From positions 23,312,001 through 23,376,000 of the forward strand of contig NC_073385.1 in assembly GCF_028641065.1 (NCBI RefSeq): a DNA stretch of 64,000 nucleotides, given 5' to 3'. The stretch is from Leucoraja erinacea. Lineage: Eukaryota. The position numbers were made by a program, and so were the translations under genes. Positions 260 to 33,689 of this stretch are shown here, piece after piece. How positions within the stretch are numbered: position 1 is the first letter of the stretch; each line of letters begins with the position of its first letter. The notes under the pieces are model-generated. The model was not told the DNA's origin. It did no database searches and saw only the letters and a list, made by a program, of their open reading frames with translations.

Positions 260-807
260 AGAGTCATAGAGTAATACAGCATGAAAACAGGCTCTTTGGC
301 CCAACTTGCCACACTATTCCCACCTGCTTGCGTTTGGCCTATATCCCTTCAAACCTGTCCTATCCATGTACCTGTCTAACTGTTTTTTAAATTTTGGGAT
401 AGTCCCCGTCTCAATTACCTCATCTGGCAGTTTGTTCAATACAACCACCACCCTTTGTGTGAAAAAGTTACCCCTCAGATTCCTATTAAATCTTTTCGCC
501 TTCATTTTAAACATATGTCCTCTGGTCCTCGATTCATCTACTCTGGGCAAGAGACTCTGTGCATCTACCCAATCTATTCCTCTCATGATTTTATACACCC
601 CTATAAGATCACCCCTCATCCCCTTGCCTTCTAAGGAATAGAGTCCCAGCCGACTCAGCCTCTCCCTATAGCACAGAGCCTCTACTCCTGGCAACATCCT
701 TGTAAATCTTCTCTGTACCCCTTCCAGTTTGACAATATCTTTCCGAAAACATGGTGCCCAGAACTGAACACAATACTCTAAATGTGGCCTCACCAATGTC
801 TGATACA
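260..807 (-). mobile_element. CR1-clade LINE 3' fragment
   Basis: LVRPHLEYCVQFWAP...RTRGH...FFTQRVV in ORF 314..916. Confidence 0.9.
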
Positions 808-1839
808 TCTTACTACATTCAGTGAATTCTCCAAGTGGTATTAATATAAGACATTCTGATACACTGGTTGAGAGAGGCTCTATGTGTTTCCTTGCCGTTA
901 TTTGTCCTGATTCCATGAAACTTTATGGAATCCAGGGCCAATGATAATTCCAAGGTCTATTCTCTCCTTGTAGTTTACTACTGGTGTACGTGCTTCTAGA
1001 GGAACACGATATAATCAGAAAGCATGGTGTAGACATCGTGGAGGTTGGCTCCCAGACACTTACTAATAACACAATTCTAATAACCTCACAATTCTAATTG
1101 TCATTAGTTGAACACACACTAACCATCTTACCCAATGATATCAGGTGCAGCTTGTGCCACAAATGTTGATGCAAGTATCAAGAATTAATTTGGCATTCAT
1201 TATACTCAACTATGAAAACAATGAAACTGGATTTTGTAGTCTGTATATCTCAGTAAGGTTTTCTCAATACAATAATTTGAAGAATTATTATAGATTGCTT
1301 TGTTTGCAGATACAAAAGATCCCTGATAGAGGGCACTACACTAACACAAAATCAAGATAATCAGCAGAGTTAGCCAACAAGCCCACCATATGACTGTGAA
1401 AGGCCCAAGTTGTTCCTTTTCCCAAAAGGAAAAACCATGGCATTATTTCTAAATAATATAAAAGCAAAACTTTGAATGTAAATTCTGGCTTTTTTAAGAA
1501 GCGAGGTTGCAAGTCAGCCAACTATATGGATATAATAATTAAATAAATAAACAAACTTTTCCTCTGCATCTCGGTACATAACAATAATAAGCCAATACCA
1601 TTTTTAATGAAAATAAAGTAAACAGACTTTACTTCCTGTTCTTCTACCTGTCTGCTAAGCTTATATTAGGGGAGACTTCAGCATCCCTTCTTTAGGTCCA
1701 AGACCTGTACTTTCCATCAACGTTTCCAGTGCAGGAAATAAAAGTTGCTGCATAATATCATATATTCAACTATTTCTGATCTTTGCAATTTATGAAATGT
1801 TCACTCTACATTGATCGACCAATTCATTCCCTGTTGTGC

Positions 1840-2645
1840 CCCAATACACATACAGAAATGGGTTTGACTTCCTGATAGTTTTCTTCCAGAGTGGTTGGAC
1901 TGGAACATGTTCAAGACCACCTCACCCAACCTGAAAGAGTATAATTCAGTCATCACTGGTTTCATCAAGAAATGTGTTTACGAGTGCATTCCAACAACGA
2001 CAATTAGAGTCTATTCTAATTAGAAACTCTGAATGATCAGGAAGATTCACTTTCTGCAAAAGTCTAGATCATGGGCTTTCAGGAAGGATGACCCTATGTT
2101 ATACAAGAAAACCAAATATGATCTCCATGAGGCTATCAGGGATACCAAGAGCGAATACTAGAATAAGTTAGTGGCTTAATTCAATCAAGTGGTGCCAGTT
2201 GACTGTGGTAGGGCCTGAATATCATCACAAATTACAAGCCAAAATCAGGGGGTAATCTGTGGCAATACTGTATCTCTACTGGATAAGCTTAATGTCTTTT
2301 TATGCCCATTTTGAACAGGCAAACAAAGTTCCACAAAGGCACATTTCCCCATCCTCCGCTGACTCTGTCCAATACGCTTCTGTAGCAGGTTAGATCTGCT
2401 TTTGCAAGGGTAAACTCTCAGAAAATGACCGAACCAGATGAAGCTCCTCGATGAGGTTGTTAATCAACTCGCCACTGTCTTCGCCGACATCTTCAACCTC
2501 TGACTTCCCCCATCGTTCCAGTCACCGAGGAAAATTAAAGTGACCTGCTTCAATGATTACCACCCAGCAGCTCCAACATTGATCATAATTAAATGCTCTG
2601 AAAGATCAGAGATGGCTAACATCTGCACCAGTCTCCCGGACAATC
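1840..2645 (+). mobile_element. Decayed Rex1/Babar-type LINE fragment
   Basis: Remnant peptides FIKKCV.ECIPTTTIRVY, FADIFNL, VTCFNDYHP with stops and frameshifts. Confidence 0.65.
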
Positions 2646-2940
2646 TATATTTGCAATTTGTGCGAGTTGCTAAGTTCCTCCAGCACTTTGTTTCTTTTCA
2701 CAAGATTCCAGCATTTGCAGTTTCTTCTGTTTTCAATTAAACTGGATAACTTGGTGCAGAGTGCAAATCAAATGTAGGACTTGAGTATATTGCTGGTTAA
2801 CAAAAAAGGACACAAAGTACTGGAGTAACTCTGTGGGTCAGGCAGCATCTCTGGAGAACAATGCTAGGTGACTTTTCAGGTTGTGACTTCTCATAATCTA
2901 GGACTTCATTCGTTTGCAGGGCTGAAGAATGCTGCATCTA

Positions 2941-3156
<216 letters not shown>

Positions 3157-4489
3157 CTAAACACCATGAAACAAAAAAAAAGTTGTCATAATTTAAGAAA
3201 CAAAGTGGTCTTCAACAAATGCATAATATAATTATTTAATGAAATACAATGCAATGGTTAAAACTAAAATATGGATAATGTTAACTCTTTCTCAAGAGAT
3301 ACTGCCTTTCCCTTTCTAGAATGTTTCATTTTTATTTCATTGATTCATAAAGGAATACAGCTTTCTTGCTTTCTAGATTTTGTGTTCCCATTTACAATGC
3401 AATAATTTCTAACACTGCGTCTGGCATTCTGTTGGAAGGAGGGCAGATTGTGTGACAAAAAACAAACTGTTTGTGCTGAAATTAGAAAATCCTGTTTACT
3501 CAGAAAACGAGGTGCAGTGACAATAGATACATTTGAATTATCCATGTTAAATTCAATCTCAGCCACGTACAGCAGTGAGATTACCAAGATGAATGAACAG
3601 GCGAAATGCCCGATCATCTGCAGCCTTGCATGCAGTCGATTTATTGACAATACCTAAAGCAAGATTACGTTTGCAATATTAAGGGCCTTATTAGCCTGCA
3701 ATGTTACTATCAATGATTTCTGTAGCTGCATGGCTAGGTTCTTCTGTTTCCGCACACCTTTAAAATTGTACTATTTTGAAAATTGTACTATTTGCAATTA
3801 GTGAAGTACCCATCTATAAATAAAGGACTGATGATCATGGAAATCAAAATAAATACCGAAAATAACTGAACTACTCAGCAAGTCAGCAATCATTTGTAAA
3901 AAAATCCATCTGATGTCAATGACCTTTCATATGTTCAAACAAAAGGTCATCAGGCTAAAATGTTAATGATTTTTCTCCCTCCCTCCAGCTGCCTGACCTG
4001 CTGTGTTTCCAGCATTTTCTGTATGCACTTCCTTATTCACTATTATAATAGAATGAATGTGTCATCCAATTCACACACAACTGTGCACCAAAATGATAAC
4101 CATATAATCTATTTTTGTGATGTTGATTGAGGAATAAATGTAGGCTGAAATGTAGGAGAAATACTCCTGCTCTTTTTCAAAATAGTGGCATGGGAATCTT
4201 TCCATACTTCTCTTGGGGTAGATCGGTCTTTGATTTCAATTTCTTCTGGGAGTTAGAATATCTTCATGGTGCAACATTCCAATGCTAATATGGAGAGTTG
4301 ATTTGTTTTACATCTGATCAAGTTACCTTCAAACCTATCACTTGGATATTAAAGTACTAACAAGTAATCTTTGGCTGTGCATATATTGTCTTATTCTTCC
4401 TTTGAAAATTAATTACTTTGTTCTTTGAAATATCATTTTAGAAGGTTAGAGCCAAATAGTGGAATTAATAATGTCAAAATCATGTTTAC

Positions 4490-5149: not shown

Positions 5150-5590
5150 TGTAGATCAGTGTCAGTCATGTTATGAATCATACTTTGTAGCTATGCCCAC
5201 TAGTTTAACAGAAAGCTTCCCAGCCCTTTCTCCCTCAGTCTTGAGTTACGTATAAAGATGAAGTTACCTATGCTGTAACGCTAATAAAGTCTTTGGACCT
5301 TAATCACTGTGTGTGACCTTAGTTATTCCAACAACAGAAGTTTAACATGGTGTCAGAGTGTACGGACTCACTCCTTGCTTAATTATATTGCTTTTATTTT
5401 AGTTTGTTGTTTTCTCCGATTATATACTACTATAGCTTCTGCTCTCAGAAAACCAGAGATCCTGGTGTTTGACGAAGACCTCACAGAATGGTGGCGCATA
5501 TTTGAAGAAGATTTCTCAATTTACATTGAAGCATCTCATCCTACTGCTGCTCCCCGTGTTCGAGCACCGGGAGCAGCAGTAGGGTGAGGT
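5150..5590 (+). mobile_element. Truncated Gypsy element: LTR (5150-5347), PBS and gag N-terminus
   Basis: TG...CA LTR with AATAAA, then tggtgtcaga PBS and RKPEILVFDEDLTEWWRIFEEDF. Confidence 0.78.
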
Positions 5591-24289: not shown

Positions 24290-25211
24290 CTTGAGTTCTG
24301 GTTCTGGTTGATTACTGCGCAATCAGTGGTTATCTCGCGCAGGTCGGAGTGAGTAGAGTAGTGATTAAATTTTGAAGTGGGCCTTTTTCACCAAGTTGAG
24401 GAGATCTAGTTGCTCAATCCCCTTTTTAAATGACTTAACATCGGGAGCAGTACGTGCGTTGGGTGGTAACATATTCCATTCCCTTAACGTTCTTTGGTAA
24501 AGGGAATATTGGTAGCAAAGTTTATTGAAATTTAACGAGTTGATGATGTAGGGACCGTTATTTTGTCTTGTTTCATGGCAGTTGGTGCTCTGGGATGACG
24601 GGAGATTTGATGGCGTGATTTTGTGAATCTCGTTGTAAATTGCAATGTCTTTGCCTGATTCTGCGGAGCTCTAGGGTATCCCATCTGAGAGAAGCCAGCA
24701 TATTATTCACGCTTGATTCGCACTCATAGTCATTACAAACATAGCAGGCTGCTCGGTGTTGTACTTCCTCCAGGGTGATCTTGGTGTTGTTGTTGAAAGG
24801 ATCCCATACAGCTCCACAATACTCCAGTTTGGGCCTGACCAAGGACTTGTAGGCATTCTCTTTGACGGATGTACTACATGCGTGAACATTTCTTTTGAGT
24901 AGACCGAGAGTTCTATTTGCTTTGTTGGACACTTGATTAATATGCATCGCCCAACTTAAATCTTTGTTTAATTCGACTGCAAGATATGGGTGATGGTCGA
25001 CAGCAAGCAATGTATGGCTACCCTTGTTGTACTCCGATAAAAGTGGTTTAATCTTGAGCGAGACGTGCATGGTATGACATTTGGTTGTATTGAATGACAT
25101 CTGCCAGGTTTTTCCCCACTCACAGAGAGCATCCAGATCCTTCTGTAAGGACAAGCTGACTTCTGGTGTACGCTTCATCTGTTCTTGATTTCTATGAGCA
25201 TTCAGTGTCAT
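24290..25211 (-). mobile_element. Divergent CR1-group LINE 3' fragment
   Basis: LQKDLDAL.EW...KANRTLGLLKRN...AYKSLVRPKLEYCGAVWDP; ccagaa-repeat tail. Confidence 0.8.
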
Positions 25212-25359: not shown

Positions 25360-25975
25360 ACACCCACAACATCTGTGCCAAACATAATGCCAAGACCAAA
25401 GCTTATCTGCCTGCACATAATCCATATCCCTCCATTACCTGAGTATCCTTATGCCTATCCAAAAGTCTCTTAAATGCCACTATCGTATCAGCCTCAACCA
25501 CCAATCCCAGCAGCATGTTCCAGGCACTTATCAACCTCTGTGTAAAAAAACTTGCCCCGCATATTTTCTATAAACTTTGCCCCTCTCACCTTAATGGTAT
25601 GGCGTATAGTATGTGATTTTTCTATTCTGGGGAAAAGGTTCTGATCGTCTACCCTATCTATGCCTCTTTTATATACCTCTATCAGATCTCCCTGCAATCC
25701 CTGCCATTCAAGAGAAAACAATTCAAGTCTGTCCAACTTCTCACTATATATAATCCAGGCATTTCTTTTTAAAACCTCCTCTGTACCCCTTCCAAACTCT
25801 CCACATCCTTTCTGTAATGGACAACCCGAACCACACAATACTCCAAATGAGGCATAACCTAAGTCCTCAAAGCGGCTTCCTGACTCTTATACCTAATGCT
25901 CTAATACCAATTAAGGCAAGTATACCATATGACTTCTTTACCACTCTAGCTACTTGTGTTGCCGCTTTCTGGGAG
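25360..25975 (-). mobile_element. Old CR1 3' fragment
   Basis: Degenerate CR1 motifs in ORFs 25494..25838 and 25867..26052. Confidence 0.8.
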
Positions 25976-26019
25976 TTAATATATCCTACGTTAAAAAACA
26001 CCATGTTTTTGATTGATAA

Positions 26020-27078
26020 AAATACATCTACTGATGCTCCTGAACACGTCATCAGTGATGTAACCTGGGGTCATTGGGTGTTTCGGGTCTTTCAACATCA
26101 GACACCCTCACCCAGGCGACCCAGCCGTGGTTGATCAGACCACGACTTGTGTTCAGGTGGCATTCGCTCCTCCCCATGGACCTTCTCTCCTGATCCAGAG
26201 CCATCTTGAGGCCTTCTCCACTGCCTCTGGTGTTCTTGATGGCTCTTCTCCTCGTCATTCCATTGATGCCCAGTGCACTCAAGACTTTGTAGAGCGAATG
26301 CCCTGCAAAACCTCTGCAGCCAACCTCGATGGGCATACATCTTGCCTTCCAGCCCTGCTTACGGCAGTCTATGACCAGCTCTACGTACTTGGCTACCTTC
26401 CTCTCGTGGGCCTCCTCCCACGGTCTCTGTCAGTTCCAACAAGACAATGTTTTTGTTCGCCTGAGAGCAGGAGAATGTCTGGCCTCAGGGTGGTTGTGGC
26501 AATGTGCTGCGGGAACTTCAGCTGTTTCACCAGGTCTACAGAAAGCTGCCAGTCCTGCGCAGTCAACCAAGATTCCTGGCTGCTGTGGTTCTTGGCAGCT
26601 GCACTCCGGCCTGCACGAAGGTGATCATCTGGGTGGTGGGGCGTGCTCGTCTGCAGCTGCTGATTCCCATACTGATGGCTTCTGCAATGGGTTTAAGAAC
26701 CTGATCGTAATGCCAGGTGTACCAGCCCTGCCCAAGAGCCTTTGGGCAGCAGCTCAGGATGTGTTCCAACGTCCCCTTGCCCGAGCATTGCGGGCAATCC
26801 GGAGATTCCACTTTGCCCCAGATGAAGAGGTTCGATGGGCTGGGCAGGACATCATACACTGCCTGGACTAGGAACTTGATGCACTGTGGTTCAGCCTGCC
26901 AGAGCTCAGTCCATGTGACTTTTCTGTCCATGGCCTGCTCCCACCTTGTCCAGGCTCCCTGTTGCCTCAATCCAAACGCTCTGGTAAACCTCTCCTCCTC
27001 TACCACTGCCCTCACTTCCTACTGGACCAGCCTGCACCTCTCCTTCCCCTTGGCCTTGTCAAACTGGGGAGTTGGGAA
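26020..27078 (-). mobile_element. 3' fragment of a Hero-type (R2-group, restriction-like endonuclease) non-LTR retrotransposon
   Basis: CPQC...LEHILSCC zinc knuckle; frameshifted RPD...ELT.PWEE...KVAKY and PIEVGCRGF endonuclease motifs; 3' UTR. Confidence 0.82.
26043..26116 (-). ncRNA. Hammerhead-like RNA with permuted strand order and kink-turn (predicted)
   Basis: Core elements GUC, GAAA and CUGAUGA all present; perfect 6-bp stems I and III; imperfect stem II. Confidence 0.72.
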
Positions 27079-27484
27079 TATAAATTAGATAATTTTCTAA
27101 AACTATAATTGGTTTTCATAGCAAATTTTGAAAGCAAATCAAAAGTAAACTTGAATTTGTTAACATGCTATCTAACATGATATGAAAAACAGCTGGTTCC
27201 CACAATAACAGATAAAAAAAGAATAAAGTAACACAAAATTACATTGCCAAATTTGTTTCAAGAGATATTGCGCATTTTCTTTTCAGCATTGTCGAAGTTT
27301 TGCAAGACCAATTCTATAAAAGCTTATGATGATGCAGGAGTCAAATTTAACTCCCACTACGAAGAAAGAAAAGAGAAATAAGTCAATTTATCTGCCTAAG
27401 GGTGGATAAATCTCATTGTGCAAAATCTAATCTTCACTGATTATCAAGAGGGCATATGTTCTTGCTGCATTTGAATGAAGATCT

Positions 27485-29290
27485 AATTCCCCTGATGGTC
27501 TGAATCCCAGGGTACTGTAGGAGGTGGCTCTAGAAATCATGTACGCAATGGTGATAATTTTCCAATGTTCTATAGATTCAGGATCCTGTGGATTGGGAGG
27601 TAGCTAATATTATCCCACTTTTCAAGAAAGGAGGGAGAGAGAAAGCTGGGAATTATAGACCAGTGAGCCTGACATCAGTGGTGGGGAAGATGCTGGAGTC
27701 GATGATCAAAGGTAATAGCGGCGCATTTGGATAGCAGTAACAGGATCGGTCCAGGTCAGCATAGATTTATGAAGGGGAAATCATGCTCATCTAATCTTCT
27801 GGTATTTTTTGAGGATATAACAAGTAAAATGGATGAGCCAGTGGATGATGTGTACCTGTACTTTCAGAAAGCCTTTGTTAAGGTCCCACCCAGGAGATTT
27901 GTGGACAAAATTAGAGCACATGGTATGAGGGTAGGATATTGATATGGATAGAAAATTGGTTGGCAGACTGGAAACAAAGAGTAGGGATTAACGGGTCCCT
28001 TTCACAATGGCAGGCAATGACTAGTGGGGTGCCACAAGGCCCAGTGCTGGGACCGCAGCTATTTTCAATATAAATTAATGATTTTGATGAAGGAATTAAA
28101 AGTAACATTAGCAAATTTGCAGATTATACAAATCTGGGTGGAATGGTGAACTGTGACGAGTATGCTATGAGGATGCACAGTGATTTGGACAGGTTGGATG
28201 AGTGGGCAGTTGCTTGCCAGATGCAGTATAATGTGGATAAATGTGTGGATATCCGCTGGTGGCAAGAACGGAAAGGCAGTTTATTATCTGAATGGTATCA
28301 GGTTAGGAAAAGGGGAAGTACAACGAGACCCCTAGGTGTCCTTGTACATCAGTCACTGAAAGTAATGCCCCTGTCCCACTTAGGAAACCTGAACGGAAAC
28401 CTCTGGAGACTTTGCGCCTCACCCAAGGTTTCCGTGTGGTCCCAGAGGTTTTTGTCAATCTCCCTACCTGCTTCCACTACCTGCAACCTCCGGCAACTAC
28501 CTGCAATCTCCAGGAACCGCATGGAAACCTTGGGTGGGATGCAACGTCTCCAGAGGTTTCCGTTCAGGTTTCCTAAGTGGGACAGGGGCATAAGGATGCA
28601 GGTACAACAGGCAGTGAAGAAAGCTAATGGCATGTCGGCCTTCATAACAAGAGGAGTTGAATATAGGAGCAAAGAGGTCCTTCTGCTGTTGTACGGGGCC
28701 CTGGTGAGACCACACCTGGAGCATTGTGTGCAGTTTTGGTCTCCTCATTTGAGGAAGGAAATTCTTGCTATTGAGGGAGTACAGGGTAGGTTCACGAGGT
28801 TAATTTCCGGGATGGCGGGACTATCATACGATGAAAGCATGGAGCTACTGGGCTTGTATTCACTGGAATTTAGAGGGATGAGAGGATATCTTATAGAAAC
28901 ATATAAAATTATTAAGGGATTGGACATGCTAGAGGCAGGAAACATGTTCCCGATATTGGGGAAGTCCAATATTGGGGAACCAAGGGACACAGTTTAAGTA
29001 TAAAGGGTAGGCCAATTAAAACTGAGATGAGGAAAAACTTTTTCACACAGAGAGTTGTGAATTTGTGGAATTCTCTGCCTCAGAAGGCAGTGGAGGCCGA
29101 TTCACCAGGTGCATTCAAAAGAGAGTTAGATAGAGCTCGTAGGATTAGCAGAATCAAAGGGTATTGGGAGAAGGCAGGAACGGGGTACCGATTGTGGATG
29201 ATCAGCCATGATCATATTGAATGGCAGTGCTGGCTCGAAGGGCCGAATGGCCCACTCCTGCAGCTATTGTATATGAATCTATGTATCTAA
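27485..29290 (+). mobile_element. 5'-truncated CR1 LINE (RT region to 3' end)
   Basis: Frameshifted RT motifs NYRPVSLTSVVGK, GVPQG, SKFAD; CR1 tail. Confidence 0.92.
28366..28590. mobile_element. 225-bp PIF/Harbinger MITE in CR1
   Basis: Perfect 45-bp TIRs; TAA TSD (28363-28365 and 28591-28593); empty site seen in the sister CR1 near 32870. Confidence 0.93.
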
Positions 29291-30830: not shown

Positions 30831-30963
30831 CTTCTTTCGTGTGGCGTGCACAGCCTAAAGTTGTTGGACAACTTGTTCTATTTGATCTTCCGTTTGTGCA
30901 CGTCGAGTTAATTGCATTAGTCGAAACAGGGTGGACCACGTGAAGGTTGCAATCTTCCACCCC
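30831..30963 (-). mobile_element. 133-bp ribozyme-headed SINE-like insertion inside a CR1 LINE
   Basis: 11-bp TSD attgtaagggt (30820-30830 and 30964-30974); GAAAGAAG tail; interrupts the CR1 endonuclease frame. Confidence 0.88.
30910..30963 (-). ncRNA. Minimal HDV/CPEB3-like self-cleaving ribozyme (predicted)
   Basis: GGGGUGG-AAG-AUUGCA-ACC-UUCACGU-GGU-CCACCCU-GU-UUCGA-CUAA-UGCAAU: 7-bp P1 with G1.U wobble, 6-bp P2, 3-bp P3, 7-nt L3, J4/2 CUAA. Confidence 0.88.
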
Positions 30964-33689
30964 ATTGTAAGGGTAAAAAGACCCTTATGGAAGTTATCTA
31001 CAGGACGCTAAACAGTAGCCTGGAGATAGGGTGCAAGTTGCATCACGAGTTAAAATTAGCACGTAACAAAGGTAATGCTACGGTGGTTATGGGAGATTTC
31101 AACATGCAGGTGGACTGGGAAAATCAAGTTGGTACTGGACCCCAAGAAAGGGAGTTTGTGGAGTGCCTCTGTGATGGATTCTTACAGCAGCTTGTACTCG
31201 AGCCTACAAGGGAGAAGGCAATTCGGGATTTAGTGTTGTGCAATGAACCAGATTTGATAAGGGAACTCGAGGTAAAGGAGCCATTAGGAGGCAGTGACCA
31301 TAATATGATAAGTTTTAATCTACAATTTGAGAGGGAGAAGGGAAAATCGGAAGTGTCAGTATTACAATTGAACATAGGCGACTATGGAGCCATGAAGGAG
31401 GAGCTGGCCAAAGTTGACTGGAAAGATACCCCAGCAGGGATGACAGTGGAACAACAATGGCAGGTATTTCTGGGAATAATAAAGAAGGTGCAGGATCAGT
31501 TCATTCCAAAGAGGAAGAAAATTCCAAGGGGAGTAAGGTGCGATCGTGGCTGACAAGGGAAGTCAGGGACAGTATAAAAAGAAAAGAAAAGAAGTATAAC
31601 ATAGCAAAGATAAGCGGGAAGCCAGAGGCTTGGAGAACTTTTAAAGAGTAACAGAAGATAACTAAAAAGGCAATACAGGGAGAAAAGATGAGGTACGAAG
31701 GGAAGCTAGCCAAGAATATAAAGGAGGATAGTAAAAGCTTCTTTAGGTATGTGAAGAGGAAAACATTAGTTAAGACCAAAGTTGGACCCTTGAAGACTGA
31801 AACGGGTGAATTTATTATGGGGAACAAGGAAATGGCAGGCGAGTTGAACAGGTACTTTGGATCCGTCTTCACTAAGGAAGAGGCAAACAATATCCCTGAT
31901 GTACTAGTGGCCGGAGGATCTAGGATAACGGAGGAACTGAAGGAAATTCACAATAGGCAGGAAATAGTGTTGGCCAGACTGAGGGGACTGAAGGCTGATA
32001 AATCCCCAGGGCCTGATGGTCTGCATCCCAGGGTACTTAAGGAAGCGGCTCTAGAAATCGTTGGCACATTGGTGATAATTTTCCAATGTTCTATAGATTC
32101 AGGATTAGTTCCTGTGGATTGGAGGGTAGCTAATAATATCCCACTTTTTAAGAAATCTGCAAATTATAGATCAGTTAGCCTGACATCGGTGGTGGGGAAG
32201 ATGCTGGAATCAATTATAAAAGATGAAATAGCGGCACATTTGGATAGCAGTAACAGGATCGGTCCGAGTCAGCACGAAGGGGAAATCATGCATAACTAAT
32301 CTTCTGGAATTTTTTGAGGATGTAACTAGGAAAATGGACAAGGGAAAGCCAATGGATGTAGTGTACCTGGACTTTCAGAAAGCATTTGATAAGGTCCCAC
32401 ATAGGAGATTAGTGGGGAAAATTAGAACACACGGTATTAGGGGTAGGGTACTGACATGGATAGAAAATTGGTTGGCAGACAGGAAATAAAGAGTTGGGAT
32501 AAACTGGTCCCTTTCAGAATGGCAGGCAGTGATTAGTGGGGTACTGCAAGGCTCGGTGCTGGGACCGCAGCTATTTACAATGTACATTAATGATTTAGAT
32601 GACGGGATTAAAAGTAACATTAGCAAATTTGCAGATGGCACAAAGCTGGGTGGCAGTGTGAACTGTGAGGAGGATGCTATGAAGTCGCAGGGTGACTTGG
32701 ACAGGTTGGGTGAGTGGACAGATGCATGGCAGATGCAGTTTAATGTGGATAAATGTTATCCACTTTGGTATAAAAAACAGGAAGGCAGATTATTATCTGA
32801 ATGGTGTCAAGTTGGGAAAAGAGGAAGTACAACGAGATACTGGGGGTCCTTGTTCATCAGTCACTGAAAGTAAGCATGCAGGTACAGCAGGCAGTGAAGA
32901 AAGCAAATGGCCTGCTGGCCTTCATAACAAGAGAAGTTGTGTTTAGGAGCAAAGAGGTCCTTCTGCAGTTGTACAGGGCCCTGTATTTGAGGAAGGACAT
33001 TCTTACTATTGAGGGAGTGCAGTGTAGGTTCACAAGGTTAATTCCTGGTGAGACTGTCATATGCTGAAAGAATGGAGCGGCTGGGCGTGTATACTCTGGA
33101 ATTTAGAAGGATGAGAGGCAATCATATTGAAACATATAAGATTATTAAGGGTTTGGACACGCTAGAGGCAGGAAACATGTCCCCGATGTTGTGGCAGTCC
33201 AGAACCAGACACCACAATTTATGAATAAGGGGTAAGCCATTTAGAACGGTGATGAGGAAAAACTTTTTCACACAAAGGGTTGTGAATCTGTGGAATTCTC
33301 TGCCTCAGAAGGCAGTGGAAGCCGATTCTCTGGATTCTTTCAAGAGACAGTTAGATAGAGCTCTTAAAGATCGCGGAGTCAGGGGATATGGCGAGATGGC
33401 AGGAACGGGGTACTGATTGTGGATGATCAGCCATAGCCTCGAAGGGCCGAATGGCCTACCCCTGCACCTATTTTCTTTTGTTAATAAGCTTCTGTAAAAT
33501 TGCAGGGTACAGGGAGTCAATGAGAAAATATAGAACTAATGTGAATGGGTGATCAGTGGTCGGCATGGACATGGTAGGCTGAAGGACTGTTTCCACCTCA
33601 AGGCCTGTTTCCATGCTGCATTTCTAAAATGAACTAAACTAAACTAATCTAACCTGTGATCCCTCAATCAATTATCTAAATCTATGCCT

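Follow-up and report, generated by a model that had tools for sequence, protein, structure and literature searches.

Penelope-like elements (PLEs) combine a Penelope-type reverse transcriptase (RT) with a GIY-YIG endonuclease. Together with the retrozymes, they carry a hammerhead ribozyme in terminal repeats, occur as partial tandems, dimerise with the aid of a palindrome, have non-autonomous derivatives and have been proposed to use a circular template, as described in the accessible text of PMC4209133 and PMC6765202, and their hammerheads keep a base between positions 9 and 10.1 (PMC4209133). Among non-LTR elements, R2, L1Tc and RTE LINEs have HDV-like ribozymes at their 5' ends, which possibly free them from co-transcripts and aid translation (accessible text of PMC6765202). 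A different kind of hammerhead, type SGC (HRIMA-1 and its variants), cleaves in vitro and has a bulged U at the link between A9 and G10.1; the scheme to which it belongs assumes that block C of the core is uninterruptible, and in the accessible text of Eckert et al. 2023 (PMC10085705) it comes only from metatranscriptomes, with no example in the genome of a known organism.

The motif that we describe here is genuine and conserved, and its structure is new among hammerheads. It lies in the 3' UTR of a retrotransposon that resembles PLEs and retrozymes in its hammerhead-bearing terminal repeat, partial tandems, proposed circular template, predicted palindrome-aided dimerisation and non-autonomous derivatives, and that behaves like a PLE without belonging to that group. 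Its protein joins an RT to a C-terminal restriction-like endonuclease (RLE) and is of another retroelement class; its motif is pseudoknotted and non-circular, in contrast to the type I/III hammerheads of PLEs, and its palindrome sits in a separate hairpin instead of helix III. With R2, L1Tc and RTE elements it has in common a predicted self-cleaving RNA in a non-LTR element, with similar possible roles, but the ribozyme is of another class, is located in the 3' UTR and reaches the 5' side only via a tandem repeat, and the predicted cut lies inside the copied sequence.

In the window, a stretch of 64,000 nucleotides from Leucoraja erinacea, sequence matching placed a copy of this RT/RLE non-LTR element, 5'-truncated and frameshifted from a unit of about 3.65 kb, at 26010..27081 on the minus strand, to which all features below belong. 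It matches positions 2553-3645 of a full-length genomic copy with 91% identity, and a search of the genome for a 21-mer of the 3' UTR, taken from immediately 3' of the predicted cut, gave 591 exact occurrences. What is left of the ORF is its broken C-terminal part (26153..27081), with a CCHC knuckle and a PD..E..K endonuclease region recognised by eye, ending in the stop codon (26155-26153). The insertion ends without poly(A) at the junction J (26010..26017), next to a terminal hairpin (26024..26037) that resembles hairpins seen by eye in relatives and is likely part of the RT initiation signal. The full-length copy has a single ORF, whose RT matches RVT_1 (Pfam, E 2.1e-18), with zf-RVT below the cut-off; an N-terminal zinc finger, a CCHC knuckle and a PD..E..K motif were read by eye. 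Pfam scans of the RT and C-terminal parts gave no match to a GIY-YIG endonuclease, the C-terminal profile had no significant match in the PDB, and no relatives were found in viral contigs. Matches in the ESM Atlas were to unnamed eukaryotic RT clusters, none labelled HERO. The initial annotation spoke of a Hero retrotransposon, and we keep this as a presumptive clade name, calling the element Hero-like. The part of this label that found backing is the domain layout, together with the hosts of the named protein relatives (fishes, a ray, a skate, lancelet, scallop and mussel): both fit HERO as described in the accessible text of PMC9004415 and PMC4640811, and the hosts agree with the range given in the former.

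The motif as first quoted (26116-26043) begins about 40 nt past the stop codon, in the 3' UTR, and its letters and positions were recovered on the minus strand as given. The fold, which is a conserved, covarying hammerhead in type-SGC order, is larger than first drawn and extends over 26039-26157. Read in its own 5' to 3' direction, it starts with the 5' strand of a helix P0 (26148..26157), which overlaps the stop codon, followed by the 9-bp hairpin Pb (26123..26147) with the self-complementary loop hexamer UGAUCA (26132..26137). The 5' strand of stem II, GGGUC, comes next (26118..26122; G10.1 at 26122), then the 5' strand of the helix that bridges stems I and II (26111..26116), which is also the non-canonical helix of a kink-turn (k-turn), and the non-bulged k-turn strand (26108..26110; 3n U, 2n G, 1n A). 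The 5' strand of stem III (26102..26107; U16.1 at 26102) leads to the scissile bond, predicted by analogy between C17 (26101) and U1.1 (26100), and to the 5' strand of stem I (26095..26100). Beyond a short linker lie the stem II 3' strand GACCC (26085..26089; C11.1 at 26085), the GAAA of G12, A13, A14 and A15.1 (26084-26081), the stem III 3' strand (26076..26081), the bulged k-turn strand (26070..26075; AAU bulge, 1b G, 2b A, 3b C), the 3' strand of the bridging helix (26064..26069), the stem I 3' strand (26056..26061) and CUGAUGA (26055-26049; C3 to A9). The P0 3' strand (26039..26048) follows directly after A9.

All core elements, GUC, GAAA and CUGAUGA, are thus where the initial annotation had put them, and so is their order, S-G-C with crossing helices, outside types I, II and III. 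These types (CGS, GSC or SCG, with a three-way junction and without pseudoknots) do not describe the motif, and Rfam returned no hammerhead match in the window or in eight relatives. The plain minimum-free-energy (MFE) fold of the window motif is unremarkable (z -0.79), as expected for a doubly pseudoknotted RNA; MFE folding misses the pseudoknots.

Relatives were collected in one metagenome scan with an alignment of 50 proteins, which gave 80 loci with 37-78% protein identity. Both core anchors are found behind the ORF in 48 of these, and the full pairing descriptor is satisfied there in 42/80, compared to 0/80 reverse strands and 0/1600 shuffles, counts that exclude a chance match. Seven further descriptor matches elsewhere in the 522,238 bases are, judged by eye, more copies of the motif. 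The remaining 32 relatives comprise ten with fewer than 150 bases after the match, four with the motif elsewhere in the locus, nine with motifs that appear decayed or truncated by eye, and nine with enough sequence in which it is absent (from the first 230 nt past the ORF, and elsewhere by the descriptor). In the distant families L067 (~1990), L083 (~2450) and L095 (~2270) the distance from the ORF match to the ribozyme is 450-750 nt, which shows that 3' UTRs differ in length.

The window motif and 40 non-redundant loci were aligned with MAFFT from sequence only, giving 41 sequences. The model pairs are filled in 90.1% of 891 cells, compared to 36-46% in slid controls, and both sides change in 20 of the 23 pairs. 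In an analysis of mutual information (MI-APC), each of the 11 highest-ranking column pairs out of 3680 belongs to the model, and on the protein tree the three variable pairs of stem II show 11, 8 and 8 shared changes, with a background fraction of 0.003 or less. Stems I and III, present as pairs in the window, are supported by the same alignment, and the proposed contact of stems I and II is a covarying bridging helix, CCUGGG/CCCAGG, paired in 91.6%. As CUGANGA and GAAA served as alignment anchors, the non-anchor positions were counted separately. They follow hammerhead rules: U16.1 and G10.1 are each present in 38/41 sequences, position 7 is free, and position 17 is C in 15, A in 9, U in 17 and never G, which fits the GUC cut position predicted earlier. 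The CUGANGA/GAAA/NUH core, the covarying stems I-III and the stem I/II contact expected of a hammerhead are all present, and the expectation that core and stems would be conserved and covary among homologues was borne out. We consider it very probable that the RNA is a cleaving hammerhead.

Stem II itself had to be redrawn. The initial annotation paired GACCC with the downstream GUGUU, but this pairing is filled in only 53% of cells of the 41 sequences, no better than slid controls, with MI-APC ranks of 374-3298 and shared tree changes not beyond background, and was rejected. The true partner of GACCC is the upstream GGGUC (26122-26118), which lay outside the earlier coordinates; it is paired in 95.5% and covaries. 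The strand after A9 pairs instead with the strand at the stop codon, forming P0, and the base that had been read as an extra one before stem II is the first base of P0, a copy-specific C at the first pair that is U in 28/29 other copies. Pb fills the stretch between P0 and G10.1 without leaving a base unpaired. The hammerhead core is thus interrupted at the link of A9 to G10.1, where a perfect four-way junction, with Pb as its second arm, occupies the opening. Without mismatches, this junction is found in 30/39 families, compared to a mean of 1.7 and a maximum of 6 in offset controls; with one mismatch allowed it is found in 33/40, where one shifted control also reaches 27. The loop of Pb holds a self-complementary hexamer in 27/33 families (2000 shuffles: mean 4.1, maximum 11). 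There are six different hexamers, one of which occurs 15 times, and the 27 loops are not independent events, because related families have hexamers in common. Judged from its sequence, the palindromic loop is likely a kissing or dimer signal.

K-turns follow a consensus in which a 3-nt bulge and then tandem G.A/A.G pairs separate two helices. The same arrangement, known here from the letters, stands beside stem III, as initially noted; the 3-nt-bulge pattern occurs in 24/40 families (in L035 through the wrong GA), other bulge lengths in two or fewer.

The likeness to type SGC comprises the S, G, C order, a short linker from the 5' strand of stem I to the 3' strand of stem II, and a stem II of 5 bp that one base separates from a helix to the strand before the stem I 3' strand, as judged from the SGC-2 oligonucleotides in the accessible parts of PMC10085705. 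In the present motif, however, the 5' strands of stem II and of the bridging helix come first, the chain is opened between A9 and G10.1, and two helices stand where SGC has its bulged U. A further difference is the k-turn, which connects stem III to the bridging helix along either strand; the word 'kink' is absent from the supplement of Eckert et al., as far as accessible. Since block C is not contiguous, with no stem II 5' strand within 1-2 nt after CUGANGA, we do not file the motif as a member of type SGC, even though it works like one. We know of no natural hammerhead with two helices at A9/G10.1 that has been assayed.

The genomic surroundings of the motif are those of a partial tandem with the hammerhead in the repeat, as in PLEs. 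At three loci, a 3' fragment is joined directly to a full-length copy, and among all 52 copies with the 5'-UTR marker in this genome, 47 continue upstream past J for at least 16 nt, into sequence of their own 3' end (44/49 after removal of three duplicates, a count in which a further duplicate pair, L126/L258, remained). The joint is fixed, being one and the same across all crossing copies. Insertions end within a 4-nt window at J without poly(A), the copies examined showed no pile-up of starts at J, and 42 copies showed no consistent target-site duplication, the longest shared word being mostly 4-5 nt. Among relatives, the 3' UTR runs into the 5'-UTR motif in 10/40 and the ribozyme precedes the 5' UTR in four more, in metagenome contigs whose tandem joints repeat assembly could mimic.

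The predicted cut lies 90 nt upstream of J (-90). Of the 43 overshoots that reach -36, 22 pass the cut and 21 stop before it, compared to 2/95 terminal copies (p 5e-11), the terminal set having been drawn from the first 100 of the 532 tail matches, of which 96 were terminal and 4 joined, with one duplicate dropped. Beyond the cut, 19/22 overshoots stop before -520, compared to 40/93 first passes (p 2.6e-4), a first-pass rate that is overstated, since at least 7 of the 40 stops are internal deletions. Those overshoots that pass the cut have scattered ends, and only four sets of likely duplicates have flanks in common. Nearer to J, 17 of the 43 end at -44 to -56, at a TCA-containing site. These ends correspond to about 26053-26065 of the window, so that the first letters of these upstream repeats are those of the stem I 3' strand or CUGA. 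Two upstream overshoots, in L127 and L141, exceed 1.4 kb and are possibly full tandem dimers.

The predicted cut shows no excess of traces in the genome. None of the 591 occurrences begins at the predicted cut, with a pattern that would catch about four in ten clean starts; one pattern match ends there, and 92 copies gave no per-position excess at the cut. Length variants are as frequent at the cut (12/561) as in a control window (10/576), which a sealed circle predicts but uncut RNA predicts equally, and about 98% of copies have a clean, uncut-type joint. These counts gave no excess that would mark a genomic scar at the cut. Three rearranged joints were seen at the cut: a reiterated one (G000:C1:4038135-4038185), one in L137 and one more. 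The first two lie in upstream repeats and resemble template jumps, but are too few to be more than suggestive. The element is represented in four contig sets guessed to be RNA, where one contig spans the cut site; as ends, strand and circles are beyond what contigs reveal, we give this no weight as evidence.

The initial annotation had posed the puzzle of how both sides of a cut could be copied together. The partial-tandem layout offers an answer, as a proposal: since full-length copies run past their own start, it is likely that the element cleaves its RNA and religates it to a circle, which is then copied. Transcription would pass through both copies at a locus with a whole ribozyme in its upstream repeat, and both ribozymes would cut at NUH, giving a monomer that carries the ribozyme's 3' half at its start and the 5' half at its end. 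These halves would pair via P0, stem II, the bridging helix and stem III over about 27 bp; with the ends rebuilding one nicked ribozyme, religation should be favoured, perhaps aided by kissing of the palindromic loops. The protein would then prime internally at J and copy across the sealed site and round the unit, and strand displacement past J would remake the partial tandem, renewing donors with two ribozymes. That the element cuts its partial-tandem transcripts, religates the unit RNA into a circle and lets its RT copy for more than one round is the reading we lean towards, by a modest degree. Against it speak the peak at -44 to -56, which lies away from -90, is unpredicted by a plain circle and supports the rivals, and a genome without trace of the cut in starts, ends or length variants.

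The strong tendency of overshoots to stop inside the upstream motif, as if that copy were folded and blocked the RT and the downstream one did not, could also mean that an active hammerhead serves 5'-end processing only. In a partial tandem, the upstream copy would release the element from co-transcribed host RNA and may enable translation without a cap, as HDV-like ribozymes do in R2, while the downstream copy would be kept inactive in the RNP, with a linear, terminally redundant template. R2 and L1Tc provide precedent (PMC6765202), as does the chrysovirus 5' UTR, in which hammerhead cleavage drives translation (PMC13725137; both in their accessible text). Yet half of the overshoots (22/43) pass the cut, two of them by more than 1.4 kb, none ends at -90, and the scattered ends without shared donor flanks suggest that the overshoot is remade each time, which leaves this explanation rather unlikely in our view.

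The sharpness of the -44 to -56 peak and its TCA-containing site would better suit RNA that starts at about -50 from an internal promoter, for which the conserved 5'-UTR motif is a candidate. The motif would then be a protein-binding, dimerising fold that rarely cuts in vivo, consistent with the palindromic loop and with a cut site without scar or pile-up, and the partial tandems would stem from RT jumping between identical 50-nt ends, as in an R-like repeat. Such a scaffold is, however, not obviously in need of a position 17 that varies between C, A and U but is never G, and every catalytic letter is kept across 37-78% protein identity; we regard it as improbable. Finally, cleavage might act as a negative regulator that removes the priming tail, limiting retrotransposition or destroying read-through RNA, with only uncut RNA being copied. 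The clean joint in about 98% of copies and the slow rates of SGC ribozymes (0.007-0.13 per min; accessible text of PMC10085705) are compatible with this, but the fixed head-to-tail joint and the overshoots would be left unexplained and the products would remain paired by about 27 bp, and we give this possibility very little weight.

For the circular-template reading in its widest form, in which a whole animal clade of RLE LINEs replicates via circular RNA made by a hammerhead of a seventh topology (an SGC core with its opening at A9/G10.1, a Holliday-like four-way junction, k-turn closure and a retrovirus-like kissing loop), we see about even chances. If true, an element of the R2 superfamily would use a rolling-circle template, and animal genomes would encode a family of non-circularly permuted ribozymes. 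The motif extends the six-permutation hammerhead scheme by a break thought impossible, and it places non-circularly permuted ribozymes, so far met in metatranscriptome contigs, in the genomes of animals. The k-turn suggests how stem III meets the bridging helix, a question of geometry that Eckert et al. had left open. The long-proposed circular-template model for retrotransposons becomes testable in an RT/RLE LINE, a class now engineered for RNA-templated gene insertion, and a ribozyme that keeps its products clamped together through four helices may also be of use in circularising RNA. In the openly accessible literature we found no report of a hammerhead in Hero or another RLE LINE, nor of this wiring order, although subscription journals, Repbase Reports and bioRxiv supplements may already describe the tandem layout; the motif goes unmentioned in the accessible text of PMC13580325, PMC7650587, PMC5678591, PMC13725137 and bioRxiv 10.64898/2026.07.22.740005.

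Several observations were made in passing. The conserved 5'-UTR motif was seen just after J in L033 (4520-4620) and also in L040, L044, L045, L050, L051, L053, L056, L071, L093 and L110, families with 39-56% protein identity, and is a candidate for an internal promoter, an IRES or an RNA bound by the RT. In L048, the ribozyme before the 5' UTR (1700-1900) differs in sequence from the one after the ORF (5420-5530), by chimeric insertion, a second subfamily or misassembly. Internally deleted derivatives of about 950 bp retain both UTRs, the whole motif and the tandem joint; in L144, L120/L197, L151, L196, L232 and L233, unit positions 553-566 are joined to 3253-3272, with at least four different joints, reflecting a recurrent deletion hotspot or splicing, SIDE-like. 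In the window, the element is flanked by ORF fragments of other LINEs, CR1/L2-like by eye (24573-25211, 25494-25886, 28074-29290 and 30921-32867), which are ordinary repeats.
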